A stretch of DNA of 61,789 nucleotides, counting the filler, from Hausera hauseri (lineage: Eukaryota): assembly GCA_046269625.1 (NCBI GenBank). It is 12 parts of 12 records of this genome, joined end to end, with 100 filler letters (N's around TTAATTAATTAA, not from the genome) between each part and the next. Parts side by side here need not be neighbours in the genome. Positions count along the whole stretch, not along the records: positions 33,896 to 37,968 come from JBJURY010779981.1; 11 more parts are not named here. One strand, 5' to 3'. A program made the translations under genes and the position numbers. A model generated the notes under the pieces. The model had not been told where the DNA came from. It did not search any database and saw only the letters and a program-made list of their open reading frames with translations. Shown here piece after piece: positions 18,587 through 59,373 of the stretch (the first letter of the stretch is position 1; each line of letters opens with the position of its first letter).

Positions 18587-19879
18587 CGTGATGCGTTAGA
18601 TAAGACCCTGGACTCGTGTATAAATAGAATGATGGTAATAATGATGTTGTTACTATAAATAGCGGTCACCCTAGTGGCTACAAATTTAGCGCCTGTCGTG
18701 TTTGTGCTGCTGCATTGGTGAGAGAGCAGGACAGTTTTGTCATTTTCATACAAGCGATATCGTCAAACGTGGAATATCGTAGCGTCATCAAAGTTCTTGT
18801 GCTGAAAGGCACTTAGAATAAAGAAATCATCCAACTACAGGAGGTCTACTAGAACCAGGGTTCATCACGTTCAAGGACTTACAACTGGATTGGGGAGTTT
18901 AAACGTGGTCGACAGTCAGTTTTAGACCAGGAAAGAGAGGGAAGATCGCCTGATATTTCCGATGAAAAACGAGAATTGTACCAGAAAATTGTCCTCTCTG
19001 AACGCAGAATTAGCATTCGTGAATTGGCGAAACGTCTCCATGTCAGTTCGTTCACTACTCAAGCAATCCTGAAGGATTTGGACGTCAGAAAACTTTCCTT
19101 GCGCTTCTTTCACAGATTCATCAGTGGAGAAATGGCCGCTCAACACCTGGCGTGTTGCAAAGCCAACCTGAAGCTCTACGACAAGTATGGCGATGCTTTT
19201 CTTCAAAACATTGTCACAGAAAACGAGACTCCAGTCAGCCTCTATGTCCTTGAGAGTAAGAGGGACTCTTGAGTGGTGAATATCATCTGAATCAGCTCCA
19301 CGCATTCTCCGCAGTGTGACATCTCACGGACGGGCTGCCATGCTTACTGCATTCTGGGATATTCGCGGCATTATTAAGATCGATTTCCTGGACCGAGAAG
19401 CCACGATGAACTCACATTACTACAGTGAGCTCATGCATGATGTGCGAAAACGTCGACGAAAGTCTCCAGGCATCCCTCTCTGGCTGTTGCATGACAATGC
19501 TCCAATTCATACTTCACAAATCTCCTCGGTCACAACAGAAGAGTGTGGCTTCCAGCTTGTGGCGCCTTCACTATACATCCCGAACCTGGCTCCCAGTGAT
19601 TTTGTGCTATTGCGCCACCTCAAGCGACATCTGAAAGGCCACCATTTTCAATCCGCAAGAGAACTGAAGGAGGAAGTGGAGCAAATCCTGAAAAATTGGC
19701 TCCAAATTTCATCAGAATGCCCTTATGAAGATCCTTCGACGCTGGAAGAAATGCGTAGAGGAAAAAGGTTCATACATTGAGAAATAAGTGTATGTTGGGT
19801 TATGTAAATGTCATTAAAATTTGAAAAGGTTTGGCCTCTTTTTTCTTGTCGAGTCCAGGAATTTATCTAACGCATTACG
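18587..19879 (+). mobile_element. Full-length mariner (DD34D) transposon with pseudogenised transposase (~18757-19787)
   Basis: ~30-bp TIRs CGT(G/A)ATGCGTTAGATAA..CCTGGACTCG; TA on the right and CA on the left; motifs FKRGR, IVTENET, FWD, LHDNAPIH, and 34 residues to APSDF; stops and frameshifts. Confidence 0.93.
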
Positions 19880-22239: not shown

Positions 22240-25200
22240 GGTGGAGAAAATTTTCTTACTGATCCGTTAACTCCCCACTACGATCACCTATTCAGATGTG
22301 TGCCACAACAGGCATTAGACATTACAGGCACTACATCACCCCCCCCCCCCCGCGCGCATGACAAAATTAAGACCAGAAAGAAAAAATAAACGTAGAATAT
22401 CATAAAGAAAGGAAAAAATTGTACTATTGGGCTTTAGTATGTGTTAAACGCTGGATTCTATTTATGAATTTCTACCTACTGTAAGTACTAAATGTCACTT
22501 GGTGTGATCTACTGGAGGTTGCTGGTGTTTGCGGAGTTGTTTGAGAGAGAGATGTTGTAGATTTTATAGTATTTTGAGAGGATGTTTTGTGAAGAGGTGA
22601 AAGTGGAAAGGAAGCTGAAAAAGGAAGGGAATCAAACGAAGAAGGCGAGACTGGAGATGGAAGCGAATCGTGCGATGAAGGTGAAGTGAGTGGTGGATGT
22701 ACAGGCCATGACGGCGAAGTAGGTAATGAAGGAGCAGTAGACGATGGAGGAAATGAAAAGAATTGATTGTGACACATAGTGATTGCTGCGACTGAGCAAA
22801 ATCATCGAGGAAATTAGATGATGGCTTGATAGAAGAGAAAATAGAGTTAGGATTTGAACAGAATTGTTATCCTGGTTATCATCAACGAAGAATGCTGGCT
22901 TAAGATTGGAAATGTGTACATTTTGCGGTTTGTCCTTGCGTAAAATGGTAGCGATGTGTAAAGAAAGGTTGAGTAGTCTATAAGGGCCAACGTACTGAGG
23001 CCGAAAACCAGAAGGCGACTGATCCTTCAGCCATACAAACTTGGCTGAGTATAAGTCCTCCGGAATATACGATTTGTCTTTATTTATAAGGCGGCAAAAA
23101 GTGTTTGAGCTGATATTGACAAAGTATGGCTGTACCGCACGAATAACTTCATGTGACGGACTTTCGTCGAAATCAGAAAGCTCAAATAGTGCACAAATTG
23201 GTGTTCCAAGGAGAGCCTCGGCTGAAGCACAACATGTGGTGGCGGAAGGCGTGTTGCGCCAATCGAGTAAGACAAAAGGAAGAATTGAGGTCCAGTTGTG
23301 ATGATTGTTTGCCAAGATTTTTAAGGAAGTTTTCATGGTCCAGTGAAATCTTTCAAGAAGGCCATTTGGTTGGGTACGGTGTTGTGTGGAAATGGGCTAT
23401 CCCCAAGTGCTTTACCAGAGATTTAAAAATATCAGCTTCAAATTGCGGACCCTGGTCCTTTATAATGTGACGTGGTGAACCAAAACGGCTGATCCATATT
23501 TTAATAAAGACATCTGCTACTGAATCAGTATTGGTTGATCGAAGAGGAAAAGCTTCAGGCCAGCGAGAATGGCGTCAAAGCGAGATGTACAAGGGAAGTG
23601 GTAAAGTGGTGGTTTGAGGTGTTTTTGGACCTTATATTGCTGACATGCTACACATTCCTTAACCCAGACCTGTACATCTGTATGCCTAGTTGGCCACACA
23701 AAGTGGCGCTGCAGTAAGCGAAATGTGGCCTTCGAACCCGGATGATGAAGAGAGTGAAAGTGAATGAAGGTTGTCTTTTGTAACGATGGAGCAAGAATGA
23801 TTTTTGTATTATTCAAGTTGGATGTGTCGTGGGCGATTCCATCGATGATCTCAACAGATTGAAAAGCTTAGAGGATATTAGGTAATGGCTGGTTACTTTT
23901 CAGGATTTCAGAGGAGAAAATTGGCTGAATCGTAATTGAGCTGACCTACCGCGACAAAAAATCTGCTACCAAATTTTTGGTGCCTGAAATAAATTTCATA
24001 GAAAAACCAAATGTCGACAGATATCTGTCGTTCTTGCCTGGATGATTACTGTTTTAACGTCATGATATGCAGCAGAGGCTTATGGTCGGTTTGGATGACA
24101 AATTGTCTGGATAGAAGCAAATGCTTGAAATGCTTTACCGCCAGAACTGTGGCTAGTTTCTCACGGTCGAAAACTTTCTGGTTGTGTGAGTTTTCGGGAA
24201 TAGAATTTTAACGGCTCATAGACACGAGTGGCTGTGGTGGAGGCATTGGTGGTTAGTATGAGTTCCGCGTTGAGTTTTGGAAAAGCTAAGATTTCAACAG
24301 TCTTTAGACCTTCAGGAAGGCGATAAAATTGGTTTATTAGATCAGAAGTCCAATGGATTAGTTGTCTTTTCTTCCAAGATGATAGGTGTGCGAAAGGTGC
24401 CGTTAGTTTGGAACAGTGTGGCACGTATTTGTGTACGAAATGTAATGTCCATAGAAAACTCCTCATGTCGGTGGTAGTTGTTGGTAATGTGACATTTTTT
24501 AACTGTTGTAAATGATCAGGCTGGGGCGAATAACACTAGGGAATAATTATGTGGCTTAAGAAGTTGACGCGTTTCTGGAAGAAATTGCATTTGGAGAAAT
24601 TAATTTGCAGGTTGCTTTGATGCAATCTGTGGAAAGTAATTTGGAGGTACCCATGATGTTGTTTTATGGGGATGGAAGAGATTAGTATGTCGTCAATGTA
24701 TGGGTAAGCAAAATCAAGACCTGAGAGAACGTTGTCAATGATGCGTTGAAAGGTCTGAAATGCGCTACGTAAGCCGAAAGGCATGGAGATGTATTCATAA
24801 AGGCCAAATGGTGTGATGGCAGAAGTTTTTGGAATGTCATCAGGTGGGACAGGAATTTGATGATAGGCCTTATGCAGATCAATGGCAGAATATGTATTGG
24901 TGTTATTGAAGTTATGAAGGATATCCTTAATGATGGGTAGTGGATAAGCATCTATTACAGTCATGTTGTTTACTTGACAATAGTCGCCACATGGCCTATA
25001 GGTACAATCTTTCTTTGCTACTATATGAAGTGGTGAAACCCAAGGCGAACTTGATCTCCGAATGATACCAAATTTTTCAAGTTCATTAAATTCCTGTTCC
25101 ACAGCTTTACGTCTGCGTGGAGGCAAAGGTCTAACCTTTTGTTTGATAGGCCTCTGATGTTCTGTTACTATGTGATGATAAGTTGTGGATGGAGGCTTGA

Positions 25201-27197
25201 AGTTGATGTCCTTTTTAACTATGCGAAAGCAAGACGTTGAGATGTAGGATTTAAGATGGGAGTCTACAGATAAGAATGGTTGAGGCATATTATCGAAAGA
25301 AACTGTTGCAGTAATTGACGAAAAACAACTGGTATTGCCACAGTCAACATTCAGTTTTGATTTCTGTTTTAAATAGGTTTGTAATTGTTATTCATAACTG
25401 AAAAAATACTAACATTATTGAAAGTTTTGTCAATTGTTGAGGAGGTTTTCAATATATTTACAGATGAATGCAATGAATTGCTTGCTAGATTGCATATGAG
25501 TCATTTGATTGGATTTGCGATCTAATTTCTGTGCACTAGACAGTTGTATTTGCAATCAACTAACAGATCATGTGCAGCCGGGAAATCTGAGCCGATTATT
25601 GGTGACTTTATATTAGCTATGATGAACTTCCAAACAAACTTGTCTTGTAAGTTGTAGAAGGTAAAAGTTAGCTCTGTGGTGCCAACAATGCGCAAAGGCT
25701 GCCCACTGGCTGTGAGCAGTTGAGGCGAAGAAATTTGTTTGAAGTTGGTGCAAACGATAGCGGAAAAAACGAAAAGGCGGTTCCAGAGTCGATGAGAAAG
25801 TCTATATTTGATGAATCGTCATGGAAGATTTCAGCTTTCAACAGAAAGCCTGCAGAGGTGGTATTAAGACGGCCAGAAGAATGTAATGCATTGCCTATAC
25901 AAAAATGTTCCGTGGAATTTGGCGGCGTTATTAGTTTTTTGAAGGGTTTGGGAAAATGGGAAATGGAGAAGAAATGGAAGAGATTTATTTTTGTAATGTT
26001 TGCAACCAGGCACACATGATATGGCCTGTGACTGATACTTAGTATGGTAGATGCAAATGGAATTGTCCACAGCGTATCGTTCACTGTAGAACCGATAGCC
26101 CAAGAAATATTTCCTTGCATCCTTTCGAAACCGCGTATGATAGAATCAAGTCATACATCCACCAGGGCATGTGGATCGAGGAGGGTGTCTTGAAAGACTT
26201 CGCTTTATTGAAGGCCTAATTTCACTTCGTCAAGGCCCATTAAGATTGTTTAGTTGGGTGGTAATGGTCGAAATTGACTGCTGTAATATATCAGATTGTT
26301 GCTGCATCATTTGCAATTGTTTAGCGAAAGATGTGGTGTCTAAATTTGGCGTGTGTGGTTGCAGCCGAAATTGGAAGAAAATTATTTGTGTGGAGGATTT
26401 CAAAGGACTTATCAGCCATTATGACCATTTTTTCAATAGCCTTGGAGTCGTCTGCGACAGTAAGCATGGCTCTGATACAGATGGGCAAAGGCGACAAGAA
26501 ATAACGGCGAATTAAGTCCGCGTTATTTGTAGGCGTTACTCCAGAGGCACTAAGTTGAAATATGGCAGTTTGGAGAAAGTCGGATGGCTTTTTGCTTTCT
26601 ATTTCATGATCATTGAAGTATTTTTATATCATATTGCCTATCGATGGATTCGTGATATGGAGTACAGACTCAAGGAGTGTTTCGTAAGGTGTCAAAGATT
26701 GGAACAGTTCGAAGATGTTACTGATCTGCTGCTTGGTGTTAGCAGGCAAAAGAATTAAAAGACTGTTGGCTCGCACAAAAGTGTCAGTTATATTGTTGGA
26801 TTTTAGCCACTTGTTGGAATTGGAGTCATTTTCTACTGGAATTATTTTTATCAAGAAAAAAATCCACACAAGGTAGATTTGGTGAGGCTCTTGTTTCATG
26901 AGAGTTTGATAAACGATAGATAATAAATGTGTTTGTAGATTTATCATCTGAGAAAGATTGATTTGGGTCCGATACACCCCGAAGGTGAAAGTTGACAGTG
27001 AGATGGATGATCAAATGTTCATGACGTTTGAATAATGAGAGGGAGTCGTAAGAGTGCATAGTAAGACCTTGATATGTGAAGTAAAAGTCAGAAGTGTTGA
27101 ATAAGGAGGACACGGAGTTATATAAGGGCTGTGCTATTCTGTTGAGAGGAACTCTTATTGTTTTTTTATGCTGATTATTGCTGAAAACCAAAAAGGA
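22240..27197 (-). mobile_element. Gypsy family 1, copy E (near full length, decayed)
   Basis: Ubl-like N-terminus (26976-27197), Gag, two CHCC, AAAAAAC-TAA (25931-25940), protease LIDSGT, RT 24536-25288 (YIDD), RNase H, integrase with YVGPY, poly-G PPT 22336-22351, LTR start TGTAGTGCC at 22335. Confidence 0.94.
26976..27197 (-). pseudogene. Ubiquitin-like domain at the Gag N-terminus (copy E)
   Basis: SFLVFSNNQHKKTIRVPLNRIAQPLYNSVSSLFNTSDFYFTYQGLTMHSYDSLSLFKRHEHLIIHLTVNFHLRG; alignable to copy L 58014-58229 and in frame with the Gag start. Confidence 0.62.
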
Positions 27198-28486: not shown

Positions 28487-31400
28487 TTATTCGTCATGTG
28501 ACGAGTCATTGTCCTGGGCGCTCACGTACGGAGTGTTGTTCTGGAATATATAACTGTTTTTTTCTATGTAAGCAACACAGTCAATGATCAATTGGCTGAG
28601 GTCCGGTCTTTTTAGAATGACTGAAGCCCACTGAGCATCTGTGACATTCTTCGATTTTTTAATATGGTATGTTGATGTTAAGGGGCACTTGACTATGTAG
28701 TGCACTGATGTTGAGAGTTCGCCACAGACGCAGAGTGGGGAGGAAGATTTATTTATTCTATATAGGTATGATTGGAAGGGGCCGTGATTTGTGAAAAAGA
28801 GGTAAAGATTCCGGTGTAAAAGGAGAAATTCAGTGTTGACTTTCGGAAAGAAATTAAATGTATAACGACCTTCCTTTGCTGTTGCCCATCTGTGTTGCCA
28901 GTCCCTCAGTATTGTTACTCTTTGTTGTCTTTTCAAATATGATGGTGGTGTTGGAAGAAAGTACTGTGGGGTGTCTTCTTTTATTGAATCTTTTGCTAAG
29001 GTGTCCGCTAATTCGTTACCGTAGTTTCCGACGTGAGCTCGGACCCAGGTAAAATATATTTCTTTCTTTGTGGAGTGAACCAGTGTTATGATGTCATTAA
29101 TCAGTGCGTTCTGTGATGCAAACGAAAGTATTGCTTGTAGACCAGAGAGGCTGTCTGAGAAAATTATTGCTGAATGAAATGAACAAATTCGGAGCCAGAT
29201 GAGTGCATTTTTTATCGCAAATAGCTCAGCCTGGAAGACCGAGTTGGACTCGTGAAGTTTACCTTTCCAAGTATGAACGATATTTCTACCTTGTAGTGCA
29301 CCAAAGGCTGCACCACAGCCATCGTCTGATTTGGAACCGTCCGTATATATCTGTATTTCTGTTGTTGGAGGATTTTCTGTTAATTTCAGTGTATTCGAGG
29401 CTGGATGGAACACATATTTTGAGGTTTTTGATTGGTAGTACAGGGGATTTTGGTTATTGACAGGGATACGATGACGAGTAACCGAGCCCAATGTGGCTTC
29501 CTGGCTGAGTTTTAGATCCAGCGGTAATAAACCCGTTAATGTTTGGAGTGCCACAGTTGAGGTTTGCCTATATGCACGCGTGATCGCCAAAAGTGCAGAA
29601 CGCTGAATGGAGGAAAGAAGTTTCTGACCGTGTACTTTTTGCATGTCAAAGTACCATGTCGAGCATGCATAAGCTACAGTTCTTTCTAGGATAGAAGAAT
29701 ACCAAACCTTTTGAATTATTTTTGAAACTCCCCCATGGATAGCCGCAAACTTGTAAAGATTTTGTACTTTGTCCTTCACTTGATCCCTTTTTTTCCTCAA
29801 ATGTGGCAACCAGGAAAAGGACCTATCCAAAGTTACCCCTAGATACTCCAGTTCATAAGTTTTTTCCAGTGTTTTACCCTGTAGGTGAAACAGTGGCCTT
29901 CGACGTAAGTGGTGGGGATTTCCAAATGTAAGGACTTTACATTTGCTTATTGAAATTTCTTGACCATGTTCCCATGCCCAGTTTTGGATTATATCTAAAG
30001 ATTTGTCCCCTTCAAACTCTAGCTTTTCCCTCGAGGAACCCGAAGCAATGAGTACTAAGTCGTCTGCATAGGCCACTAATTTAGAATTTTCTTGCTTGAA
30101 TGAAATTAGTAAGGAGTTTAATAGTACTTGCCAGAGCAGTGGACCTATGCAAGAGCCCTGAGGACAGCCCCTGTAAAGTCCGTGCTCCACCTCTGGGTGC
30201 ATCCAGTCAACGATGGCCCTACGTTCAGAAAGGAATGAGGTAACTATGTTAACCAAGTCCTCTGGTATCTCATGAGTCTTGAGATATTCTATCGTTTTGT
30301 GCCACGGAAGGCGATCAAAGGCATTTTTGAAGTCTATTGTTATGACTGATGTATAATTTCGGTTATCTTTACTCGATTTTATGTGGGAAATTACCTGATT
30401 GATTGCTGTTTCCGTGGACTTTAATTCAGAGTAACCATGTTGGTTTTTAGAGAGATTTGATGAACGTGAGAGATGATAATTTAAACGACCGATAATCATT
30501 TTTTCGAAAATTTTTCCAAAGATAGGCAAGAGTGTTATCGGTCTGTAGGAGGAGGCGTCCTGCTCATTCCTTCCTGGTTTAATGAAATATACTAGTTCGC
30601 CGACCTTCCAGGCCCGCGGAAAGTAGTTAAGTTTTAGGAGTGCGTTATATAATTTCAAGAGGAGATCGGATAGTTTTGAATATAACTTCCTGATAATATG
30701 GTGGTCTATTTCATCAGGACCAGGTGCCTTATTAGCATTGAAAGAAAATATTGCAGTGTAAAGCTCCGCTGGCGTGAAATGTGGTGAATAGTTCACCTGT
30801 GTTATATGCATTGGGGATGGAAAGGAAGATTGACCAAAAATCTGTTGTGTTAAGTTCTGTAAGACGGAAAGTCTTGTTGTCGGTTCATTTGCTGGTGTAG
30901 TCTGGTAAAGTTGGATGTTCGTTTGAATGAATTTATTGAAAGCCATTTTTTGGGCTTTGCCGTAAGGATTGTTTACAGAACTACAGAAGGAGATCCATGA
31001 CCTCTTTTTGGCTTCTTGAATGTTCCTTTTATAAAGAGCTCTTTCTTGTTTGTATTTGATTTTGATTTCTGTTGAAGCGTTTATTGCTTTTGAGCGCTTG
31101 TACATTGCTGATAATTTATTTCTTTGTATTTTTAAATCGTTATTCCACCAACAAATTTTTGGTTGTAGAAAGCTGTTACGTTTTTAAAGGAATTTCTCGC
31201 AATTTTTTTAGAATAATTTCCGTGAAGATATTGAGTTGAGAATCTAAGTTGGTTGTGGTTGAAATGTCGTCAAAGAGAGAGTGCCGAATAGAGATGTCAT
31301 GTCGAACTGAATTAGCAAATTTTGACATTGGAACATTTTTTGTTTTGAAGCGTCTTTTAGGTTTTTGCGGGATAGGAAGATCCAGTTTTATTTCGATTAG

Positions 31401-32009
31401 TCTGTGATCGCCAAAAAGGATGTCATGAACTCCCCAGTGAACTATATGTGGGAAGAGTTGAAAGGAAGAGAGTGTGACGTCAGGCCAACCATGTGCTTGT
31501 GGTACTTCGAATGTTGGTTGACTATTGGGATCGTTTACGACTATTAGTCGACATGAAGCGCAATGTGTGATTAAGTTTTTCCCCCTGGAATCTTCTGCAG
31601 GATAGCCCCAAAGAGGACTATGTGCATTTAGATCACCACTTAATAAGAGATAATTGCTTAGTCTATCCAATGAGGCCCAGCCTAACAGGTCTTCCTCCAT
31701 GTTTCCCGAGGGTGGAGAATATTGTGTGCCTATTGAGATTACTTTATCGTGTAGATTAGTGTTGATAAAGACTGTATTTTCTGTTTTTAGTGTAAGACAG
31801 TGTGTTAGGTTTTGATCTATAATAATAATTAAGCAATTTTTTGAGACTGAGGTGTAGAAGGGCAGTATAGAGGGAAGACCGAAAGGCCTATTATTATGCA
31901 GATAAACGTCCTGCAGGACAGCTAGGGAAAAATTATTTGTTATAAGATAGTTCAATGCTTCGGCAGTTGCAGACTTATTGTGTTGGAGGTTTATGTGTGC
32001 TATTTTCAT
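28487..32009 (-). pseudogene. LINE ORF2: AP endonuclease, RT, RNase H, CCHC; frame disruption near 31180-31210
   Basis: HINLQH, GDLNAH, GDH (APE); PGPD, GCPQGS, YADD (RT); YTDGS, ELFAI, SDS, AHVGNYGNELAD (RNase H); CVCG..H..C. Confidence 0.95.
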
Positions 32010-33181
32010 GTTTGAAGTGAATTTGATATTTTGTTGAGTCTTGTTCTCTCTTGTTTGAGGGCTACACGATAGAATTCGCAACTGCCGGAATAAGCCGTAT
32101 GTCTAGTGTTGTAGTTAGTGAGTTTAAATTTATTTGAGTTGATGCAATTTATACACCTATGGAACTTTGGGTCATTTTTGTGTGGGCAATAGTCTGAAAA
32201 GTGTTCTCCTGAACAATGGACACAGATCGAAGGACCCTGTGCTTTACATACCCTTGCATGATGCCCCAGTGCTTGACACTTGTAGCACCTTGTTATTGTT
32301 ATGTACTTCCGTATTGGGCAGCTACGAAATTTAAACAGGAGACGACCTACCTGTAGTAACTGCTGTGCTAAGTCTTCTTCTATGTCTAGTGATAGATGGT
32401 AAGTCCCGTGATTGGTATGCAAAGGTTTTCGAAAGTCCACTGTAATGTCTCTTTCTAAGTTGAGGGTGCATTGAATTTTTGTCTTGATTTGCTCGCTGGT
32501 TACGTGGTCCGGAATATTGAAGAGCATTATACGATGTTTTTTGGGTCCTTTCACTGTTATGTACAAGTTCTTTATTATTTCTTCTGCTGCATTGAGTTTT
32601 CCTGCAAGTTCTTCTGTATCTTTGTCTGTAGCACATTCTATTAAAATATTGCCTGCTTTCGTTGGGCGACATTCTGTTGGAGATGCGTTAATGTCATAGT
32701 CGTCGAGTTTATCTAACTTTTCTGTGATTTCTCCAGGCTTCATTGATGGTTTTTTAGGCCGTAAAATTATTGCTTTTTTCCGTGCTATTGATTTATTCAG
32801 GACATCTGAGTAAGATTGTAAATTTTCTGGCGTTTTCTAGTTGTTGTCCACTTTGTTATCCGATTGTGGTTGGTTCATTACTTCCGTTAGTTTGTTGATT
32901 TTATTGAGGACAGCCGACTCAGTATAATGCCATCGCTCTACTAAACTCCGGTGGTAGGCATTAAATTCTATCAGAGTTTCCTCTAGCTTGGTGATGGTCT
33001 TTGCTGCTTTGTTTGTGGTTTGCTCTCTTAATGATTGAATAAGTTCAGCTAGTATCTCTCCGTAATCCTTTTCTGTGATGGAGAATGGTGGAGGATCATT
33101 TTTTTCCGCTGCATCTGATGTTGCTGTCTCCTGTGCCTGGTCGGTGTCGTTGCAGTGCACTTTATCGTTGTTTCGTGCCAT
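32006..33181 (-). pseudogene. LINE ORF1 (gag-like nucleic-acid-binding protein), one internal TAG
   Basis: ORFs 32837-33181 and 32006-32743 share a frame, split by a single TAG at 32837-32839; knuckles CYKCQALGHHARVC, CVHCSGEHFSDYC and CINC...HTAYSGSC. Confidence 0.9.
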
Positions 33182-33895
33182 TATCAGAGCTTTGCTGTAG
33201 TAACACTAATGTTATAATGATAGTGAAGACACTTAATAAAAGAAGATAAAAACTGATTCATGCAAGTGCCACGGGCTTGTGGGCCTTCCACCTGACAAAT
33301 TCACACACACACACACACACAAAAAAAAAAAAAATCTCACAGTTTGGCCAGGTGTTGACCAGCTAGAACAGCCAGTCTAGCACGATGCACAAAAGAAGGT
33401 CTCAATCACATACAGGAATGCCTCCATGGGTCATTGTTATTTATTGATGACATCTGTTCCAGCTTAAATGGCCACAGAAGGTACGAGTACATATGGAAGT
33501 CTCTTTTCACAGGAGAGGGGCTTTAGCTTCCATAGCGGATGTATGAAGAGAGTTTGCCCTTTTCCCTCATACCTGCTGCTGACTCCGGCTGGAAAGTGAC
33601 AACTATCCTACATCTATCAATGCAAGATTTATGTTTTTAGCAGCTTTCTCTTTGGTAGCTGTGCCCCACTACCGGCAATGTTTTCCCTCCACATTCTTAT
33701 TAGTTTAGTTTATTGCAGCAGCACGTCTGGTGAGGTCATTTATGGCCAACCAAGGTGGTATGACAAACTCATTTATAACTAGCAGACTGGAGTGCNNNNN
33801 NNNNNNNNNNNNNNNNNNNNNNNNNNNNNNNNNNNNNNNTTAATTAATTAANNNNNNNNNNNNNNNNNNNNNNNNNNNNNNNNNNNNNNNNNNNN

Positions 33896-36800
33896 TATAG
33901 CGAGCGATACGCTATGAACAACCCTATTTGCATATACCACAACAAATATCAGTCACAGGCCAGGTCATGTGTACTTGATTGTAAATACTACAAAAATAAA
34001 TCTCGCCTTTTTTCTTCCCCTTCTTCCTTTTCCTCCAAATCCTTTAAAAAAACCAATAACGCCGCCAGATTTTACGTCACATTCTGGCGCAGGCAATATC
34101 GCTCAATCTTCTGGCCGTTTCAACACCGTCTCGGCAGTCTTTCTGTTGAAAGCTGCATTGTAATGCAGAGACACTTCGCATTTCGACTTCCTTATAGATT
34201 CAGAAGCTGCCTTTTCGTTCCTTCCCTTTTCCTTCACTCCTACATCCACTATAATTTCCTGTCCACCGATTTTCACTGCCATTGGTCAACAGTTGCACGT
34301 TGCAGGAACCATGGAACTGACTTTCACATACGCCAACTTGCCAGATAAGTTTGTCTGGAAGTTCCACGTGGCCGATATTAAATCTCCCATAATAGGCTCA
34401 GATTTTCTTGCCTCACATTATCTGTTGGTCGATTGCAAATACGGCTGTCTTCTGGGCAGGAACTCAATTGCAATTTCAAACGTATGTTTCGCAGACAATC
34501 TAGCAAACGCCTCAAAGCACTCTTCTGTAAATATACTGAATACCGCGTCAAATGCTAAAAAGTATAACAATCACAAATCAATTTTAAAACAAAAATCCAA
34601 ACTGAATATTGACAGTCGCAATGCCGGTTGTTCTTCGTCAATTACTGCAACTGTCTCATCCGGTGATATGCCTCATTCACTCTTATCTCTAGACTCCAGT
34701 CTTAAATCTACATCACAACGTCGTGTTTTTGCATAGTCAAAAGGGACGTCAACTTTAAGCTGCCATCCACAACTTATTACCATATAGTATCGAAGAATCA
34801 GAGGCCTATCAAACAAAATGTTAGACCTTTGTCGCCACGCAGACGTAAAGCTGTGGAACAAGAATTTAATGAACTGGAAAGGTATGACATAATTCGGAGA
34901 TCGAATTCACCGTGGGCTTCTCCTCTTTATGTAGTGGTAAAGAAAGATGGTACCTATAGGCCACGTGGCGACTATCGACAATTAAACAACCTAACTATTA
35001 CAGATGCCTATCCACTACCACTCATTAAGGATATTCTTCATAGCCTCAATAACACCAATACTTATTCTACCATTGATCTGCACAAGGCCTACCATCACAT
35101 TCCTGTTGCACCTGATGACATTCCAAAAAGTGCTGTCATTACACCATTTCGCCTTTACGAATACATATTTATGCCTTTCGGCCTACGTCGTGTATTTCAG
35201 AACTTTCAGCGCCACATTGACACCGTTCTTTCTGGTCTTGATTTGCTCACTCATACATAGATGACATATTAGTCGCTTCCAGCTCCATCAAACAACATCA
35301 TGAACACCTTAGAATTATTTTCCACAGATTGCATCAAATCAACCTGAAAATTAATTTCGCCAAATGCAACTTCTTGCAGAAACGCGTCAACTTCCTACGC
35401 TACATAATTACTCCCGAAGGTCATTCGCCTCAGCCTGATCGCTTACAACAATTCAAAAATGTCACAATACCAATTACCACTACCAATATGAGGAATTTTT
35501 AGGGACACTGCACTTAGTACACAAATGCGTTCCCCACTGCTCCGAACTAACGGCACCTTTCGCACACATCTCATCCGAGAAGAAAAGACAATTAATCCAT
35601 TGGACTCCCGAGGTAGTTAATCAATTTTATCGCCTTCGTGATGGTCTGAAGTCCGTTGAAATCCTGGCTTTTCCAAAACCGAACGCGGAACTAATATTAA
35701 CTACCGATGCCTCAACCACATCCACTGGTGCGATATTACACCAAATACACAATGGTGTGGATGAGCCGTTAGAATCTATTCCCGAAAGCTTACGCAACCA
35801 AAAAGCCAATACACAACATTCGATCGTGAACTCCTGGCTATAGTTCTAGCGGTAAAGCATTTTAAGCATTTGCCTTATCACGCCAATTTTTCATCCAAAC
35901 CGACCATAAACCTCTACTTCATATCATGACGTTAAAACAGCCATCACCCAGACATCGACGTCAGATATCATATCTTTCGACATTTTGCCTTTCCATGAAA
36001 TATATTTCTGGCACCGAAAACTTAGTAACAGATTTTCTGTCGCGGTCGGTAAACTCAATTACAGATCAGCCAACTTTCTCCTCTGAAGTCCTGAGAAGTA
36101 ATCAGCCATCATCTGATATTCTCCAAGCCTTTCAATCGGTTGAGATCATTGATGGCATCGTCTACGACACATCAAACTCGACTAATAAGAAAATCATTCT
36201 TGCTCCATCGCTAAAAAACACAGCTTTCATTCATTTTTACTCTCTTCATCATCCGGGTTCCAAAGCCACATTTCGTCTACTGCAACGCCGCGTTGTATAG
36301 CCAACTATGCGTACCGATGTACAGATATAGGTCAAGGAATGTGTAACATGTCAACAATATAAGGTTCATAAACACCTCAAACCACCACTTTACCACTTTC
36401 CTTGCACTTCTCGTTTTGAAACCGTGCATTTGGATCTTGTGGATCCTCTACATTCCGACAACGGTTATCAATATATCTTATCCATGATGGATCGTGCTTC
36501 CGCTGGCCTGAAGCCGTTCCGCTTTGATCAACCTGCACTGACTCAGTAGCAAATGCATTTATGAAGATATTGGTCAGCCGGTTTGGCTCACCATGTCACA
36601 TCATAACGGACCAGGGTCCGCAATTTCAAGCTGATTTTTTCAAATCTCTTGTAAAGCACTTGGGGATAGCCAATTTCCATACGACGCCGTACTATTCCCA
36701 AGCAAATGATCTTCTTGAGAAATTTCATCGCACCATGAAGATTTCCTTAAAAGTCCTGGCAAACAACAATCATAATTAGACCTTGATTCTTCCTTTTGTC

Positions 36801-37792
36801 CTACTCGGTTGGCGCAACACGCCATCCACTACCGCAGGTTGTGCTCCGGCTAAAGCTCTCTTTGGGACACCAATTCTTGCGCTGTTTGAGCTCTCCCACT
36901 TCGATGATAGTCCATCAGATGAAGTTATTCGTGCGGCACAGTCCCATTTTGTAGATGTAAACTCAGACGCCTTTTGCCGTCTCATAAATAAAGACAAATC
37001 TTATATTCCAGAATACTTATACTCAGCCAAGTTTGTATGGCTGAAGGACCCTTCACCGTCTTGTTTTCGGCATCAATACGTTGGCCCTTACAAACTAATC
37101 AACCTTCCTTAACACATCGTTACTATTTTACGTAAGGACAGACCTCAAAATGTACATATTACTAACCTTTAAGCCAGCATTCTTTGTTTACAATGACCAG
37201 GATAACAGCACTGTTTCAAATCCTATTTCTAACTTCTTTTCCTTCGGGTCATCATCCAATTTCCTCGATGACTTTGATCTGTCGCAGCAATCACTATCTA
37301 ATCACAATCAAATCTCTTCACCTACATCATCGTCCACTGCTCCTTCGCCACCTATTTTGCCGTCATCGCCTGCACACCCACCACTCATTTCACTTTCATC
37401 GCACGTTTCGCTTCCATCTCCAGCCTCGCCTTATTCGTTTGATCCACTCCACTCTTCAGCTTCTTCTCAATTTTCACCTCTTCATGAAGCATCTTCCCAA
37501 AACACCACAAAATCCACAGAATCTCTCCCTTAAACAACTCCACAAGCACCAGTAACATCTAACAGGTCACGCAAAGTGACATTTAGTACTTACAGCAGGG
37601 AGAAGTTCATAGATGGAATCCAAGGTCTGACATGTACCAAAACCGAATAGGTACAATTTCTTCTTTTGCCTACTATAATCTCCGTTAATTTTTTCTCTTT
37701 GTAGTCTTCATCTTGCCATGAGGGGTGATGTAGTGCCTAAAGTGTGGTCGCACTGGAGGGGTTAGCGGATCGGTGAGCGCATTTTCCCCACA
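33896..37792 (+). mobile_element. Gypsy family 1, copy G (5'-truncated, decayed)
   Basis: CIYHNKYQSQARSCVLDC, protease, RT (34829-35260), RNase H, integrase (TDQGPQF, YVGPY), tail RKVTFSTYSRE (stop 37650), PPT ~37720-37728, LTR start TGTAGTGCC at 37729. Confidence 0.94.
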
Positions 37793-38382: not shown

Positions 38383-38805
38383 CTAATTTTCGGATTTGAA
38401 TATCTTCGAGGCGTTGTCGTACATTCCATCCACAAGTTTTCTGCACAGATCTTTGATAGAGGCATCATGATTCCAAACGTCTATGGTGTCAGCGATCAGT
38501 TGTTGCTTATAGGAGGGTTTCATTTGAGCAACTTTGCTTTTCAACACGGCCCGTACATTTTCGATCGGGTTCATATCGGGTGATGAACTGGGCCATTTCA
38601 TAACATTGATACCCAAATCCCGAAACAACTTCATGAAACCCTTTGATACATGACATGGTGCGCCATCTTGTTGCAGATACCATGGACTACAATTAGCAAA
38701 CCAATCTTCAGCTTGCGGAACTATTCTCTCCCTAATAACGTTGCAATAAACTTCCGAATTCATGGACCTTTTACACACATAAAGTCGTTTCGAGTCCTGC
38801 CACAA
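38383..38805 (-). pseudogene. Tc1 (DD34E) transposase C-terminal fragment
   Basis: QQDGAPCH...WPSSSPDMNPIE with 34 residues between D and E. Confidence 0.9.
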
Positions 38806-39357
38806 AATACACGTCCTGAATTTTTACAGAATTATTGCTAACATGTAACAGTTATATTGGATCATGCTCATCAACCGCTGCAACAAATACTCATGCAAGT
38901 CACAACAGTTCCTTTCTTTGTTTTTGTTTAAAATAACAAGCCATTAGTTGGAATGACCTTCTGATTCAATTTTATATTTATAACATTTGTAATTGAGTCA
39001 TTTTTATTTCATTTACAGGCTTATGAAAAATTTATAATTTCGCACGAAAATTATATTTTCACTATAGTTTCATTCTAACATTATCAGATATGTACTAACT
39101 CGTAAAAATGGTAGGAAGGAAATAGTGCAATTAATGCAGTCTTGAAAACAATTAATTCTACAGTTAAAATTACATTTACATAAATCCCAATATACACTCT
39201 TAAAACTCCAGCAGAGTCTACATACAAATTATTTCGAGTTTAAAGGAAATTCTAATCGTTGTCAAATAATTGGGCAAAGAACTTTGTAATTATTTCTATT
39301 GGATATATGATCTATTAATATTACTGTGATTCATTACGGATTCTAAATTGAAGTATC

Positions 39358-40179
39358 ATGGCAACACTTGACAGAAGAGTTGTCGTACCTTGGTTGATTA
39401 TAAGTTATTCCACAACAATAATTGGTGGTTTCGGTAATTTATGGTTTCTTTATGTTGTGAAAAAATACATGTGGGATAAACCGAACTACAGGATTTTATT
39501 TGGCATAATGATTTTCAACATTTTATGTGATTTTATATTCATCCCAGTTAAAATTGTTCAAACCCACTTGTATTTCCAGGAAAATATTTTGTTTGGTAAT
39601 AATTTGTTCTGCCAGATTTTATCGTTACCATTTAACATTTGCCTATTCTGTTCAATGAGTGGCCAATTTTTGGCGGCCGTTTTTCGAGGCTGGGCTGTGT
39701 TCTTTCCAATTTCATTTAGACGATTCGCAACGATTCGGTTCATTACGATAACGTTTGTTATTGTTGCTGTTGTCATTCCAGGTGTATACCATTTTGCTAC
39801 GTTCCCGTGGGCCATCAATTACGTTTATGACATGACGTATGGAGACTGTGAAACAAGGTACGGCACAAAGAATTCCAATATGATTCGATCGATTATATTT
39901 ACGTACACGCCTTTAGCAACGAGTTTTCTCATTTATATTGGGATATTTTGTAAAATTTTAACGTTGAAATCCACTGAAAGAGCCCAAATGATAAAACTCA
40001 CTCGTGGCAGTGCAGCCATGTTCTTTTGCCTTGTCGCATATGCTGGTTTAGTTATGCCTCTTTGGATCAATTACAGCATTGGTAATCAGTATTCGGCAAT
40101 AAACTATGGGATATGGACGAAATGGGCGTACAGATTTAGTTATTGCGTTGATCCGGTTAGAATTTTAAAAATATGTTAA
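39358..40179 (+). CDS. Divergent class A (rhodopsin-like) GPCR; 3' end possibly spliced at CCG|GT (40156)
   Basis: Seven hydrophobic segments; TM1 GN, TM2 ILCD, TM3 Cys, R-x-x-AVFFP after TM3, ECL2 Cys, TM6 Pro, TM7 VDP. Intact 273-aa ORF. Confidence 0.85.
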   Translation: MATLDRRVVVPWLIISYSTTIIGGFGNLWFLYVVKKYMWDKPNYRILFGIMIFNILCDFIFIPVKIVQTHLYFQENILFGNNLFCQILSLPFNICLFCSMSGQFLAAVFRGWAVFFPISFRRFATIRFITITFVIVAVVIPGVYHFATFPWAINYVYDMTYGDCETRYGTKNSNMIRSIIFTYTPLATSFLIYIGIFCKILTLKSTERAQMIKLTRGSAAMFFCLVAYAGLVMPLWINYSIGNQYSAINYGIWTKWAYRFSYCVDPVRILKIC

Positions 40180-41445: not shown

Positions 41446-43503
41446 GCTTCTAGAGCAACAGATTTGATGGAAATTTTGCATGCTTACGTTATTTGTTACA
41501 CTGATTTGAAATATATAGATCATTTTTGCTCTTACCCAGAATTGTCGCAGCTATTGACTTGTGTTAGCAAAGTAGTCATCGAATGTAACAACAGTTTACA
41601 GATGCAGCGCATATTGCAGCACTTTTCTATGACCTCTAATTCAATACGCCGTATCGCTGATTTCGTGTGCTTTGTATAAATCTGAGCCATTGAAAAATTC
41701 ACGTGTAATCCCATTGACCAGCAGCACAAATTACCCCATAAAAAGCGCAACTCAACAAAAAAACATTTATTCTCCTTTCGGTTGCTTACTGCCTTCCATC
41801 TTTGTTAATGTCTGCGAACTGCGCATCAGCTAATTGGAAAAACCTTGATATTTTGGTATTCAAATAACTTTTGATTCATTCGGGTTGTGTCCATAATATT
41901 CATAGTTTGTTTGGTGATGAATAAATCTGACTTTGCGTCACATAAAATGATACTCTCCGCCTCCTCATGAACAAGTTTTTGGAACTATCCGATGCAATCC
42001 CGTTTAGAAATCAATTCAATCCTTGAATATTTATATATTTTACGGACATACACAAGAAACTAAGCAACGAAACGATGACAATCAAGAAAATTGGTTTGAC
42101 AGTTCTTGTCGGAAAATTACAGTTTATGATGCCATAGTTAGCCAAGAGTCCGTTAAATCCCCTATTTAATTTTATACAAAAAAATAAGCGGGTGCCTCAG
42201 GAAAATAATTCCCATACTACCTGAAAATTCCACGCATTTACCCCCCCCTCCATCACCACCATCACCACCAGCTGTGTCTTATTCAATAAATGCCGAAACA
42301 TTTTACCCTCAAGAGTACGAGATAACTGGCCTTCAACGAAAGCCCCAGAAATAGACCGTTTGGTCGTTTTCTCATCGTCCATTTTATCCTTCAATGCCTG
42401 AAGACAATCGAGACATTGGAAAATCGTATAGAGATTAGCCCTGACAATCGATATCGGCTCTTTCATCTTCTCACTAGCCATGTTATCCCTGAACGCGTCC
42501 AATGTCTTCACGAGGTCATCAAAGCTACAAAATGAAATACATATGCAATCCAACAGAACCGGATTACTTTGTAGAATAATGATGCTTTAACAAATACAAA
42601 ACCGGATCGAAATCGGTTTCTGTCAGTGCAGTGGAGCCCCGTCCTGGTACAGGAATTGTTACGTATTCGTTGCTTGTAAATACCCGTACCGTTGTACAAC
42701 TTTACGAGCTCCTCATCGGACAAAGGGAAACTCAGACCGACACTCTGGTGGCCCAACATAACGTCTTGAATGTTCTCCATCATTTCCGATTGCATGTGTT
42801 TCGGTTGGGTGCGTTTCAATGAGTCCATGGACATTTTGTGTTTGACATCTTCATTCGGTGGCCAGTAAGACACTTCTTCTTGTAGTCCTGCATGAATTGT
42901 TAGTAAAATGTTAAATGGGTTTTGTAAAATTCGCGATAGGGTCAGCCATGATAATGATTGAATTCAACATCCTTCAAACATTGGCAATTGATGGAAATTC
43001 GTGCTTATCAAATAAGACAAGTGCACTATTACCCTTTAATTAATTTGCTACCTTCAAAATTACAAATGCCGCATCAAAATTCTAACTAATCAATAACGAA
43101 ATATTCTAAACAAATTCAGACAAAAATTTAAAAAATTCCTGAATTGGCCAATTTACCCCAGTAATACCAACTGAATTTCATAAAAAACACCTCTAATTAG
43201 TAAAAAAATCTATAATGTTCATTATTTAACAAGATAATCAAAAATAAACACAAACCGACACTCAACGAAACCGATTGATGGTAATCAACATCGCATGTCC
43301 CTTTGCCTCCACTTGTCGTCACAACAATAATTTTCATATCTCCCTGACCCAATGGTGTGATAATATTCAATCGTTTGGACGAATACCACTGGACTGAACA
43401 TCCNNNNNNNNNNNNNNNNNNNNNNNNNNNNNNNNNNNNNNNNNNNNTTAATTAATTAANNNNNNNNNNNNNNNNNNNNNNNNNNNNNNNNNNNNNNNNN
43501 NNN

Positions 43504-49709: not shown

Positions 49710-52109
49710 TTTTGTGTCCGGATTCCGTTGATGGAAAACCCCGCAACCAACCCACGTCACTATTCACATGCGCTTATAAACAAAGTAAATTTTGCCGGAA
49801 CTTCCTAATGATAGGCACTACAATACCCCCAGTGGCTGAGTTGGGAAATTGGAAGATAAGATCGAAAGGAACTCTGAGAACAAACAAAAGTGCCTAAGAA
49901 GTTTTCGTGAGTATAAGTCGTTGTACTCATTCGCCGTTTAATTCTCTGCTATAGTTACTGAAAGTGACGGATTTAAAACGTACCTTCTTTGAAGAGTCTG
50001 GATGCTGGTGAGGTTTATCAGCAGAAAATAAGGTTGAATGTGGAGCAGAAATGTGAGTAGAAAGAGGGGTAGATGGCGAAATCGAGGTGGCAACGGGAAT
50101 GGAATTGGTACGAGACAATGTAAGTACAGGGGTGATAGCATTAGGTAAATGTGTGATGGACTGGGGAGTCTGGGTCAAGGTGGTGGTAGGTGTGGGAAAT
50201 GAGGTTGTTGTTTTCGTTATTGAGGTATCGTCGACATAAAAGGCAGGTTTCACATTCGTAATGTGTACTGCGACCTCTTCACCATCTTTAAGGATAATAG
50301 CGTTATGTGATTGTAACTTATTTAACTTATATGGCCCTAAATACTGTGGTTGGAAACAGCAAGGTGACTGGTTTTGTAGCCATACAAACTTTGCTGAGTA
50401 CAAATCATCAGGTATATAGGATTTATCGTTGTGTAAAAGTCTGCAAAACGAATCTTTGCTAATAGCAACAAAATGGTCCTGTGCTGCTCGTATCCTCTCA
50501 TCTGTGGGAGTTTCCTCTAAAGCAGTTAATTCGAACAAAGACCGTATAGGAGTACCGAATAATGCTTCTGTTAGTAAGCATCCTGTGGATGTGGACGGAG
50601 TATTCCGCCAGCCAAGCAGGACAAAAGGTAGAAGTGTGGTCCAATTGGTGTTTTACTGTGCAAGGATTCGCAGTGATGTTTTTAGAGTTCTATGAAAACG
50701 TTCAAGCAGACCATTTGACTGTGGATGATATGGTGTGGTATTAATATGACTTATACCTAATCGGTTTACTAAAGATTCAAACTGCGAACCTTGGTCTGAG
50801 ATGATATAGCGGGGAGATCCGAATCTACTAATCCGCGTGCGAATAAAAGTATCAGTTATAGTGTCAGTATTTGTGCTCCGTAGTGGAATGGCTTCTGACC
50901 ATCGTAAGGCGCGGTACATCATAGTCAGAATAAATTGGTGGCCGTTGTCTATTAGAAGAGGACCGACGATATCGATGTGTACTGTCTCAAAGCGTGATGT
51001 GCATGGAAAATGGTATAGTTGTGGCTTTAGGTGTTTGGTGATTTTATATTTCTGGCAAGCCACACATTCTTTGACCCATGCTTGCACATCTGAACGCATA
51101 GTAGGCCATATCACTTGTCGATTAAGTAGACGGAAGGTAGCCTTTGCGCCAGGGTGATGCAATGAGTGCACACTCTTAAATGCGAGTTTGTGTAAAGATG
51201 GTGCGAGAATGATTTTTGAATGTCCTGGTTTTGAAATATCCACAGCCACACCGTCAATTACCTGGTGGAATTTGAACAATTTAAGGATATCTTGCGATGG
51301 TTGATTATCATGGAGCTTTTCCTGAGAAAAAATTAATGAAAAGTTGATTGATCCGACTGATCTGGACAAGAAATCAACAACTAGATTGTCAACACCTTCT
51401 ATATATTTGATGTTAAAGTTAAAGGTGGACAAATAAGAAATTTGCCGTTCTTGTCGAGTTGAAGGGTGCTTCATTTCCATTATATGAATTAACGGCTTAT
51501 GATCAGTCTGTATAACAAAATGACGTGCTGTAAGTAAATGCGAAAAATGCCTTAATGCGAGAACTATGGCCAAAAGTTCCCGATCGAAAGTCGAATATCT
51601 AGTTTCTTGTGGTGTTAATTTTCGAGAAAAAAATTCTAGAGGTTGGTTTTCTCCTTTGTATAATTGGTGTAATACGGCTACTACTGCAGTATTTGACGCA
51701 TCTGTAGTTAAGATTAACTCAGAGTCAGATTTAGGAAATGCCAGTATTTCCACAGTTTTTAGTCCTTCACGTAACTTGTCGAAATATTTGACCAGTTGTG
51801 GCGTCCACATGATTTTCTGGTGTTTCTTTCCTCCACTTAAGTGATCGAAAGGTGCTGTAAGTTCCGAACAGTATGGGATATACTTGTGGAAGAAATGTAA
51901 GGTGCCAAGAAAACTGTGCATTTCTGTGGTTGTCTTCGGTAACTGGACATTTTTAAGAATCTCAACTCGATCAGGCTGAGGTGAATGGCCGTATGGTGTG
52001 ATAATATGTCCCAGGAAATTAACACGCTTTTGAAAAAATTGCATTTCGCAAAATTGATTTGTAGATTGTATTGGTTAAGACGTTTGAAGATGGATTGCAG
52101 ATGTTCCTC
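49710..52109 (-). mobile_element. Gypsy family 1, copy J (RT end, RNase H, integrase, 3' LTR start)
   Basis: 463-aa ORF with TTDAS, RELLAI, TDHKPL, HSLHHPG-CVAC, HIDIVGP, SDQGSQFE, GLLERFHRTLK; YLGPY; tail KKVRFKSVTF; GGGGG then TGTAGTGCC at 49822. Left boundary approximate. Confidence 0.94.
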
Positions 52110-57496: not shown

Positions 57497-58013
57497 NNNN
57501 NNNNNNNNNNNNNNNNNNNNNNNNNNNNNNNNNNNNNNNNTTAATTAATTAANNNNNNNNNNNNNNNNNNNNNNNNNNNNNNNNNNNNNNNNNNNNGAGA
57601 GTCTTCTGCCGATTTTAAGCAACACTCCCACGTAGCGAGTAAAGACTGACCGAATCCTACGATCCCAATAGGTAATTATTAAACATTTAAAGAATCTGGA
57701 GACAATATTAACACTAGTGTCATACGTTAAAATGACTCACGACGTTACATATATCATAAAAATGCGAATATACTACATGACACAGAATAATTTCGAATAA
57801 TGTCGATAAAACCATCACAAAATACGTACGTATCAAAGACCTTAAACAGAAAACATGCAAATTCGACACTATAGCTACGATGGAACTCAAAAGGAGGGAC
57901 TCGACAACTTCAATGTTTCGGTTTCGACGTGGCGGCGCCGAATTCATGGCTACCCGCTCTGGGCCGTTGGGTCGGACAGTACCGTTCGCGGAGACCCCGC
58001 GACACGCCCCACA

Positions 58014-58229
58014 CTATTTTCCCTTTTCTTTTTTTTAAATAACAAACATATTTACACCATTAAAGCATCACACATAAACACTAAATATATTTACAACACC
58101 ATCTGCACTTTTACCTACTCACCTGATTTCTACATTACGTACTACGGCTCTAAAGTATCTATCTGTGGGATCCTAAATCTTTCTTCGCCTTATATCCACC
58201 GCCATATACACTTCCGCATCCGTGGGGGC
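58014..58229 (+). pseudogene. Ubiquitin-like domain ending FRIRGG, fused in frame to Gag (copy L)
   Basis: LFSLFFFLNNKHIYTIKASHINTKYIYNTICTFTYSPDFYITYYGSKVSICGILNLSSPYIHRHIHFRIRGG|MNSS; 72 codons, followed by ATG 58230 and Gag. Confidence 0.68.
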
Positions 58230-59301: not shown

Positions 59302-59373
59302 AAAAAACTAAATTTGCCGCCAGAAGTCACGGCAAACTCTGGCAAAGGAACTTCTTCACCTTCTGAATGCCAA
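59302..59373 (+). promoter_or_regulatory. Putative -1 ribosomal frameshift signal (gag/pol)
   Basis: A AAA AAC in the Gag frame followed by TAA; the -1 frame reads into the protease; downstream stem GCCAGA/TCTGGC. Confidence 0.8.

Follow-up and report, generated by a model that had tools for sequence, protein, structure and literature searches.

At the end of Pol, in a family of animal retrotransposons without a chromodomain, does the integrase carry a short peptide that docks a host protein phosphatase? The window, by which we mean the whole 61,789-nucleotide stretch of Hausera hauseri DNA analysed here, contains a decayed Ty3/gypsy copy reaching the end of pol in four of its contigs, and the sequence-only reading had proposed that all four Pol proteins converge, behind an S/P/T-rich linker, on one terminal module that starts with an RVxF-like motif of the kind that binds protein phosphatase 1 (PP1). 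We consider it probable, at roughly 0.7, that this tail docks host PP1 through its RVxF motif, a prediction that draws on the tails of many relatives and on a structural model. The window (positions 1-61789) is an artificial string of contigs of 4-7 kb, in which there are 11 N-TTAATTAATTAA-N spacers as well as two gaps of 10 N, and neighbours across contigs are uninformative because short contigs have simply been joined.

A shared terminal module in four broken Pol genes

The four copies, A, E and J on the minus strand and G on the plus strand, are all broken, and they do share one terminal Pol module, found as peptides at the places and on the strands reported earlier. The family of copy G is abundant, with 8665 contigs of sequencing run X1 placed on G at a likeness of at least 80%. 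In G, the end of the integrase core, the GPY/F motif and the C-terminal domain (36501-37169, +) match the relative P0001 at 74% (P0001 residues 7-229), and are followed by an S/T/P-rich linker (37171-37563, +; 43% to P0001 residues 230-409), which is out of frame with the C-terminal domain and carries an in-frame stop. The terminal module of about 29 residues, stop codon included, then occupies 37564-37650 (+), with the RVxF-type core R-K-V-T-F at 37570-37584; the peptide originally quoted for G is present, and the start given for it, 37561, is one codon early and falls on an Asn.

The module of copy E lies at 22424-22510 (-), with the core H-Q-V-T-F at 22490-22504 and an in-frame stop at 22472-22474. 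The module of copy A, at 553-640 (-), shares an ORF (553-1092) with the end of the C-terminal domain and reads E-S-V-T-F at 619-633, without a basic residue. Copy J, at 49894-49989 (-), has both K-K-V-R-F (49975-49989) and K-S-V-T-F (49960-49974), as well as an in-frame stop at 49927-49929 that, like that of E, lies inside the module; its RNase H, integrase (H2C2, core and GPY/F) and linker at 49930-52074 (-) are in the same frame as the module, with one internal stop. In J and A the module thus continues the reading frame of the integrase C-terminal domain, and frameshifts lie in or just before the linker in G and E. From the Val of the motif to the stop all four copies span 25 codons without indels (G 37576-37650, E 22424-22498, A 553-627, J 49894-49968). 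These relationships show the module to be where Pol ends: it encodes the extreme C-terminus of a CsRn1-like Ty3/gypsy integrase.

Two descriptions of these copies need amendment. The linker had been called unalignable, which is accurate across the three lineages but not for G and E, which align at 79% over 365 nt. The motif had also been said to match strictly only in G and J; both do match, J twice, and A, with Glu at -2, fails every pattern, but the H-Q-V-T-F of E satisfies the stricter pattern once His is accepted in first position, as we take it to be. RVxF-like strings occur 22 times in the 123,574 codons of the six frames of the window; those at 41937-41959 and 38511 are off-frame chance matches, and one at 57123 lies within the protease region of a different gypsy fragment.

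Behind the module stop, at a distance of 71-88 nt in all four copies, come a purine-rich tract and a 3' LTR-like start, TGT(A/T)GTG. In G the tract (37720-37728, +) lies directly 5' of the 3' LTR start (37729), and from this position is likely to be the polypurine tract. A second LTR copy or 5' LTR was not found in the four copies, whose contigs end before it.

A CsRn1-like family without a chromodomain

The order of Pol domains, reverse transcriptase, RNase H and integrase (H2C2 and core), is given by Pfam matches in the window ORFs and in the relative P0003, and by tblastn order in G. A CHCC Gag knuckle of the form C-x2-H-x9-C-x3-C is present in G (33929-33982, +), E (26002-26055, -) and A (4206-4259, -), the contig of J being without gag; the Gag pieces match no Pfam family at a useful E-value. 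A GPY motif is found in J and E, and the short distance from Pol stop to LTR leaves no env. The Pfam search of the window ORFs and of P0003, P0005 and P0009 gave no chromodomain, PF00385 appearing only in the distant match P0052, and a chromovirus assignment was rejected for want of a chromodomain behind the integrase. No match with two or fewer mismatches to a 13-nt tRNA-Trp primer binding motif was seen in the 5' region, to which no more than one or two of the decayed copies extend. The CHCC knuckle, a GPY/F motif and the lack of both chromodomain and env are given as marks of CsRn1-like elements in the available part of PMC2582038, and by these features we class the elements as CsRn1-like; the FastTree tree of 150 integrase domains, rooted at its midpoint, was made without named CsRn1, Kabuki or PwRn1 references. 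In this tree the window's family falls within a clade of 29 members (support 0.987).

The same CsRn1-like family has a fifth copy at 57597-61789 (+), with a 5' leader, gag, protease, reverse transcriptase and RNase H; it is cut off inside the integrase by the end of the window and shows no clear primer binding site. Other mobile sequences in the window include a fragment with Gag and protease from another gypsy-like lineage (55484-57496, +), with a 361-aa ORF containing degenerate zinc knuckles followed by an LLDTGA protease motif, which gave no Pfam match; a well-preserved LINE-type element (28487-33205, -) with an ORF1 zinc knuckle, endonuclease, reverse transcriptase and its own RNase H, its ORF2 lying in two frames split near 31180; and Tc1/mariner-type transposase fragments (HTH, Transposase_1 and DDE_3) at 18853-19780 (+) and 38383-38823 (-). 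The contig at 4821-9404 consists of tandem arrays with units of 115, 106 and 141 nt and a 15-nt array at 6351-6757, the 115- and 106-nt arrays being inverted repeats that face each other around a centre in a foldback-like arrangement. A seven-transmembrane receptor fragment lies at 39352-40179 (+), and among Atlas clusters it comes closest to serpentine chemoreceptors of nematodes (score 0.96); judged by this single gene, the host is probably an invertebrate and perhaps a nematode.

Constraint on the module acts on the protein

The module sits just 71-88 nt 5' of the LTR, and its conservation could in principle come from a cis element acting at the nucleotide level, close to both the polypurine tract and the 3' LTR. 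The pattern of substitution points elsewhere. Over all 24 module codons of the four copies, invariant bases number 12/24, 15/24 and 2/24 at codon positions 1, 2 and 3, and over the nine core codons 8/9, 7/9 and 1/9. Pairwise pN in the core is 0-0.09 against a pS of 0.2-1.5, with few sites in a core chosen for being conserved; over 24 codons pN and pS are 0.13-0.32 and 0.41-1.07, similar to the 0.11-0.25 and 0.40-0.85 of the integrase core, so that the pS of the module is near or above that of the core. In run X1, 433 contigs lie on 37525-37665 and give 12 variants at a frequency of at least 8%, five of them synonymous with codon classes read from the listed places, and both of the listed variants of at least 8% within V-T-F-S-T-Y-S-R-E of G are synonymous. 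Moreover, other lineages carry the motif at different distances from the end of Pol. A cis element as the source of conservation is rejected because third codon positions vary while first and second positions are held, and because the X1 core variants are synonymous; we regard it as extremely improbable. The comparison of synonymous and non-synonymous change shows instead that the terminal module is under protein-level constraint.

The same run gives a view of the residues in front of the Val. The Lys at -1 of G is a minority state, with 92% of X1 depth having another base at 37573, and the Arg codon at -2 has, among the variants listed, none of at least 8% in either of its first two bases.

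RVxF motifs are enriched in the integrase tails of relatives

Uninterrupted relatives were available in P0001, P0003 and P0004, which carry K-[S/T/I]-V-T-F 26 residues from the end and share the ending K-[S/T/I]-V-T-F-[S/T]-x-Y-S-R ... Q-R-L-V-H-T-K-T. A consensus without a basic residue before V-T-F had been named as grounds for abandoning the PP1 proposal; Lys is present in all three intact proteins, and the missing basic residue of A and the His of E are exceptions in a family whose intact members regularly carry one. The linkers of these three proteins are 51-55% S+T+P, a composition suggesting that the motif is exposed in a disordered region.

The integrase core and C-terminal domain were used to find relatives because circularity was to be avoided; a query including the J linker was also used, and the motif was present in one query only, which returned one protein. 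The first 200 proteins included 187 with a complete C-terminal domain. Tails shorter than 15 residues (18) or longer than 200 (15, fusions) were removed, together with a duplicate and the copy from the window, leaving 152 tails (set 1). A second set, fetched after the patterns had been fixed, brought 116 further proteins; the domain was complete in 65 of these, and 60 tails were left once five short ones were dropped. Among the named hosts are a mite, a spider, wasps, an ant and a mosquito. The strict pattern was [HKR][ACHKMNQRSTV]V[CHKNQRST][FW], which we take to be that of PP1 RVxF motifs, and the loose (Wakula) pattern was [RK]x0-1[VI]{P}[FW]. An extended pattern requires [KR][KR] in front of the same core (PMC4794898, in part).

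The strict motif is present in 57/152 tails of set 1, against 0.9 expected from shuffled tails (at most 5 in 1000 shuffles), and the loose pattern in 66/152 against 7.7. Control patterns gave one match each when reversed, with V and F swapped, respaced, or with Leu for Val, none with V and F adjacent, and two with an acidic flank. In set 2 the strict motif is found in 37/60 tails against 0.33, with controls at 0-1; this set is inflated by a single family with a dozen or so close members, and in both sets related proteins are counted more than once. The extended pattern matches 11/28 tails in the window's clade, 12/124 outside it and 12/60 in set 2, where 0.01-0.08 would be expected. G, J, P0001, P0003 and P0004 match the loose pattern, and P0001 and P0003 the extended one. 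Strict matches occur in 20/28 tails of the window's clade and 37/124 outside it, and persist when sequences are clustered (35/113 clusters at 60% identity, 19/47 at 50%); their density is 5.5 per 1000 residues in tails compared to 0.10 in the folded Pol body. The motif is therefore far commoner than the four window copies had indicated, and these predicted proteins show K/R-x-V-x-F to be strongly and specifically enriched in the tails across the clade.

The enrichment does not extend to every phosphatase motif. SILK-type motifs appear in 4/152 tails of set 1 against 0.49 (9/152 against 1.1 in a relaxed form, none reversed), an excess that was not replicated in set 2 (2/60 against 0.49; 44 of 500 shuffles). 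They are seen in the tails of P0020, P0081, P0168, P0200, P0208 and P0224, some of them 15-20 residues before an RVxF or degenerate RVxF. The MyPhoNE-like pattern is at chance or absent in the tails, the B56 motif LxxIxE is at chance in set 1 (10/152 against 11.8), and the viral contigs searched gave neither a P0001 relative nor a PP1 pattern match.

The tails are also rich in basic motifs, and the module might be a basic segment binding DNA, nucleosomes or importin, with V-x-F a by-product. A T-R-S-G-R-type motif is found in 67/152 tails against 4.3 in shuffled ones and an AT-hook-like RGRP in 10/152 against 0.4; the G-R motif presumably resembles nucleosome acidic-patch anchors, and in 15 tails the RVxF lies three or seven residues behind the T-R-S-G-R-type motif and could be part of it. 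This reading is improbable: none of the 29 proteins of its clade has the G-R motif and 21 have a strict RVxF, and binding to DNA or importin does not need V and F exactly two apart, a spacing whose permutations are all at chance. Relative to the T-R-S-G-R-type motif the RVxF of set 1 stands at +3 in 11 tails, +7 in four, at five other offsets, and alone in 37, varied placements as expected for a free linear motif, and its occurrence before, inside, after or without the basic motif suggests repeated gain. In P0024, P0044, P0110, P0187, P0193, P0198 and others the integrase ends in the AT-hook-like RGRP, mostly without an RVxF. As judged from these sequences, the CsRn1-like clade swaps among several tail modules.

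Members of the window's clade share a block behind the motif, [S/A/G/N/T]-x-[W/Y], often with R-x-x-R/H-T-K near the end. The strict motif is absent from 95/152 tails, from 8/28 in the window's clade including the nearest sisters P0005 and P0053, and from 10 of 13 clusters formed by single linkage at 45% identity, which leaves it in 3; some motif-less predicted proteins may be truncated or degenerate. Much of the clade can do without the RVxF motif.

Other uses of V-x-F deserve consideration: it could be a beta-strand that packs on the integrase itself, a dock for another host protein such as a MAPK docking groove, cyclin or PDZ domain, or a protease cleavage site. MAPK D-sites consist of basic residues and then two spaced hydrophobics, a pattern that the tail also fits; some lineages have V-x-I or V-x-L, and several elements end two or three residues past the Phe. 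Isoleucine for Phe is enriched in set 1 (6/152 against 1.2) and occurs in 0/60 tails of set 2. Cyclin RxL motifs and most D-sites prefer Leu, which replaces Val in only 1/152 and 1/60 tails and Phe in three and none. The motif occupies widely differing places in the tail, which speaks against packing at a fixed site within the molecule, cleavage so near the C-terminus would free only a few residues, and the chance-level LxxIxE count gives no help to a B56 dock. Taken together, we find these uses quite improbable.

A structural model of the tail on PP1

Docking to PP1 was modelled with residues 368-410 of P0001, rather than the tail of a window copy, and a stand-in PP1 from a metagenome contig (L004), whose best PDB matches are PP1alpha (E 1e-204). 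The pair scored 0.94 in three runs that share at least 84% of contacts, with a partner pLDDT of at least 72, and the best of three controls scored 0.02; the runs used no alignments, and the controls were unrelated proteins rather than RVxF decoys or V/F mutants. The score mark was reached by 51/78 solved and 2/108 mismatched microbial pairs, and by 39/65 solved eukaryotic pairs without a like complex (71/105 in all; 12/29 small interfaces) and 2/126 unrelated ones, a calibration on protein pairs, not on peptides or disordered chains.

In the model (PP1alpha numbering) V387 of P0001 contacts I169, D242, L243, L289 and C291, F389 contacts C291 and R261, and F257 is in the interface; the residues touched by V387 and F389 are those of the RVxF pocket as listed in the available text of PMC10731240. 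The structural check thus places V and F in the canonical pocket. The stretch Y392-T398 touches residues 292-300 of beta-14, and the interface includes Y78; this is the site where Phi-Phi motifs add a strand (PMC7599070, in part). Residues 405 and 407-410 also touch PP1, contacts that would fit a hairpin. R403 stands at F+14, the spacing of the Phactr1 Arg motif in the same partial source, and is absent from the listed contacts. The pass may come from likeness alone, because many RVxF-PP1 complexes have been solved, and we read it as likeness to PP1 partners and not as proof that the tail binds. A PDB sequence search with the G tail gave no matches at E<=10, and an Atlas search with the P0001 tail no usable match.

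What a docked PP1 might do

The earlier suggestion of a PP1-binding or other tethering peptide is supported in its PP1 part by the enrichment, the basic residue of the intact relatives, the protein-level conservation and the modelled fit to the RVxF pocket, binding itself being predicted. In the mechanism we propose, V and F would fill the RVxF pocket of PP1 and the next residues would extend beta-14 at the Phi-Phi site, so that the integrase acts as a PP1-targeting subunit carrying the phosphatase to the pre-integration complex. The bound PP1 could still be active and dephosphorylate substrates close by, whether integrase, Gag or the chromatin proteins where insertion takes place. The long linker is not an obvious substrate because its S/T-P-rich form is confined to the window's family (9-15 S/T-P sites in P0001, P0003 and P0004, 1-3 in P0009 and P0012) and is not general. 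Ser or Thr stands at the x position in 26/57 strict matches, and in several cellular RVxF motifs is an Aurora site (PMC6363451, in part); it might serve as an Aurora-kinase off-switch that favours mitotic exit or interphase. Given PP1 binding, this catalytic, cell-cycle role is the least certain step, and we put it a little short of even odds.

PP1 could alternatively be bound as a structural scaffold or chromatin tether, its phosphatase activity not being needed, a reading that shares the binding step with the one above. Deltaretroviral integrase recruits PP2A-B56 in such a structural or tethering role, and infection is not blocked by inhibitors (bioRxiv 10.64898/2026.05.01.722153, in part), and in Ty1 and Ty5 short C-terminal integrase peptides direct integration (PMC7459421, in part); purely structural recruitment has better precedent than a catalytic role. 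CsRn1-like elements have no chromodomain, and no result of this analysis supports the tail as a replacement for one or shows an insertion-site preference. Most PP1 partners, in the available part of PMC6363451, use the same RVxF pocket. The groove takes one partner, and PP1 on integrase would then be unable to bind RepoMan-, Ki-67- or PNUTS-type subunits through it, so a PP1-targeting role fits better than a tether through RVxF-type chromatin subunits. The modelled contacts are at the RVxF and beta-14 sites, and as we read the contact list the active site is left open. We judge the scaffold or tether unlikely.

In its widest form, the PP1-targeting proposal would hold that in CsRn1-like elements of many animals the integrase is a PP1-targeting subunit, its RVxF re-created at several tail positions, that times or licenses integration in the cell cycle, an env-less PP1 counterpart of the HTLV-1 integrase-PP2A system. 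This generalization is tentative and rather doubtful.

Comparison with known systems

A PP1-docking motif in 38-62% of the sampled tails of a widespread animal clade provides a specific candidate host partner, where the known host cofactors of LTR-retrotransposon integrases are few and mostly from yeast and plants. If the proposal is true, phosphatase recruitment by integrase arose independently of the deltaretroviruses with another phosphatase, the elements gain a handle on host phosphorylation control, and there is a second system for the question of enzyme versus scaffold in integration. Our literature search, which left most subscription papers and supplements outside its reach, turned up nothing that ties the integrase of an LTR retrotransposon to PP1 or an RVxF motif; nearest to it, an ELM scan of betaretroviral integrases lists unvalidated PP1 motifs (PMC8303831, in part), and hepatitis B virus polymerase co-precipitates PP1 with no link to capsid dephosphorylation in the available text (PMC10983652). 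A yeast gene entry, PMC3522557, proved unrelated to any integrase-PP1 link. Phosphatase recruitment by an integrase motif in deltaretroviruses and C-terminal host-binding peptides in Ty1 and Ty5 are already known; what is likely to be new is PP1 and RVxF in LTR-retrotransposon integrases.

The window's family resembles the CsRn1/PwRn1/AgCR clade in its CHCC knuckle, GPY/F, lack of chromodomain and env, and PR-RT-RH-IN order, and differs in having a tail module where the available part of PMC2582038 describes nothing behind GPY/F. It belongs to a distinct clade, without the T-R-S-G-R tail of most CsRn1-like relatives and with no tRNA-Trp primer binding site found. With the integrase peptides of Ty1 and Ty5, which bind AC40 and Sir4, it shares a short peptide in the C-terminal region predicted to bind a host protein, and the Ty5 targeting peptide is controlled by phosphorylation (PMC7459421, in part); those elements are copia-type with chromatin or transcription partners and proven targeting, whereas here the partner would be an enzyme docking groove, predicted from sequence and model. 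Like the cellular PP1 regulators Phactr1, PNUTS, spinophilin, RRP1B (whose motif is KVTF), RepoMan and Ki-67 (PMC7599070, PMC10731240, PMC9813921 and PMC6363451, each in part), the tail has basic-x-V-x-F in a low-complexity region, often with Ser or Thr at x, and in the model touches both the RVxF pocket and beta-14. Unlike them, it is encoded by a mobile element, has no sequence likeness to a PDB chain at E<=10, lacks the Arg-motif contact in the model, and carries an F-x-x-[W/Y]...R-x-x-x-T-K block particular to the window's clade.

The closest precedent is the deltaretroviral (HTLV-1/STLV-1) integrase with PP2A-B56 (PMC4705670 and PMC7542444, in part), where the role of the phosphatase is structural, not catalytic; HTLV-1 integrase binds PP2A-B56 and blocks its active site, and the activity is not needed (the bioRxiv preprint cited above, in part). 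In both cases a short linear motif that mimics host partners recruits, or here is predicted to recruit, a PPP-family Ser/Thr phosphatase. The deltaretroviral motif is LxxIxE and its target the B56 regulatory subunit, whereas the candidate motif described here is an RVxF directed at the PP1 catalytic subunit, set at the very end of a long linker in an env-less LTR retrotransposon.
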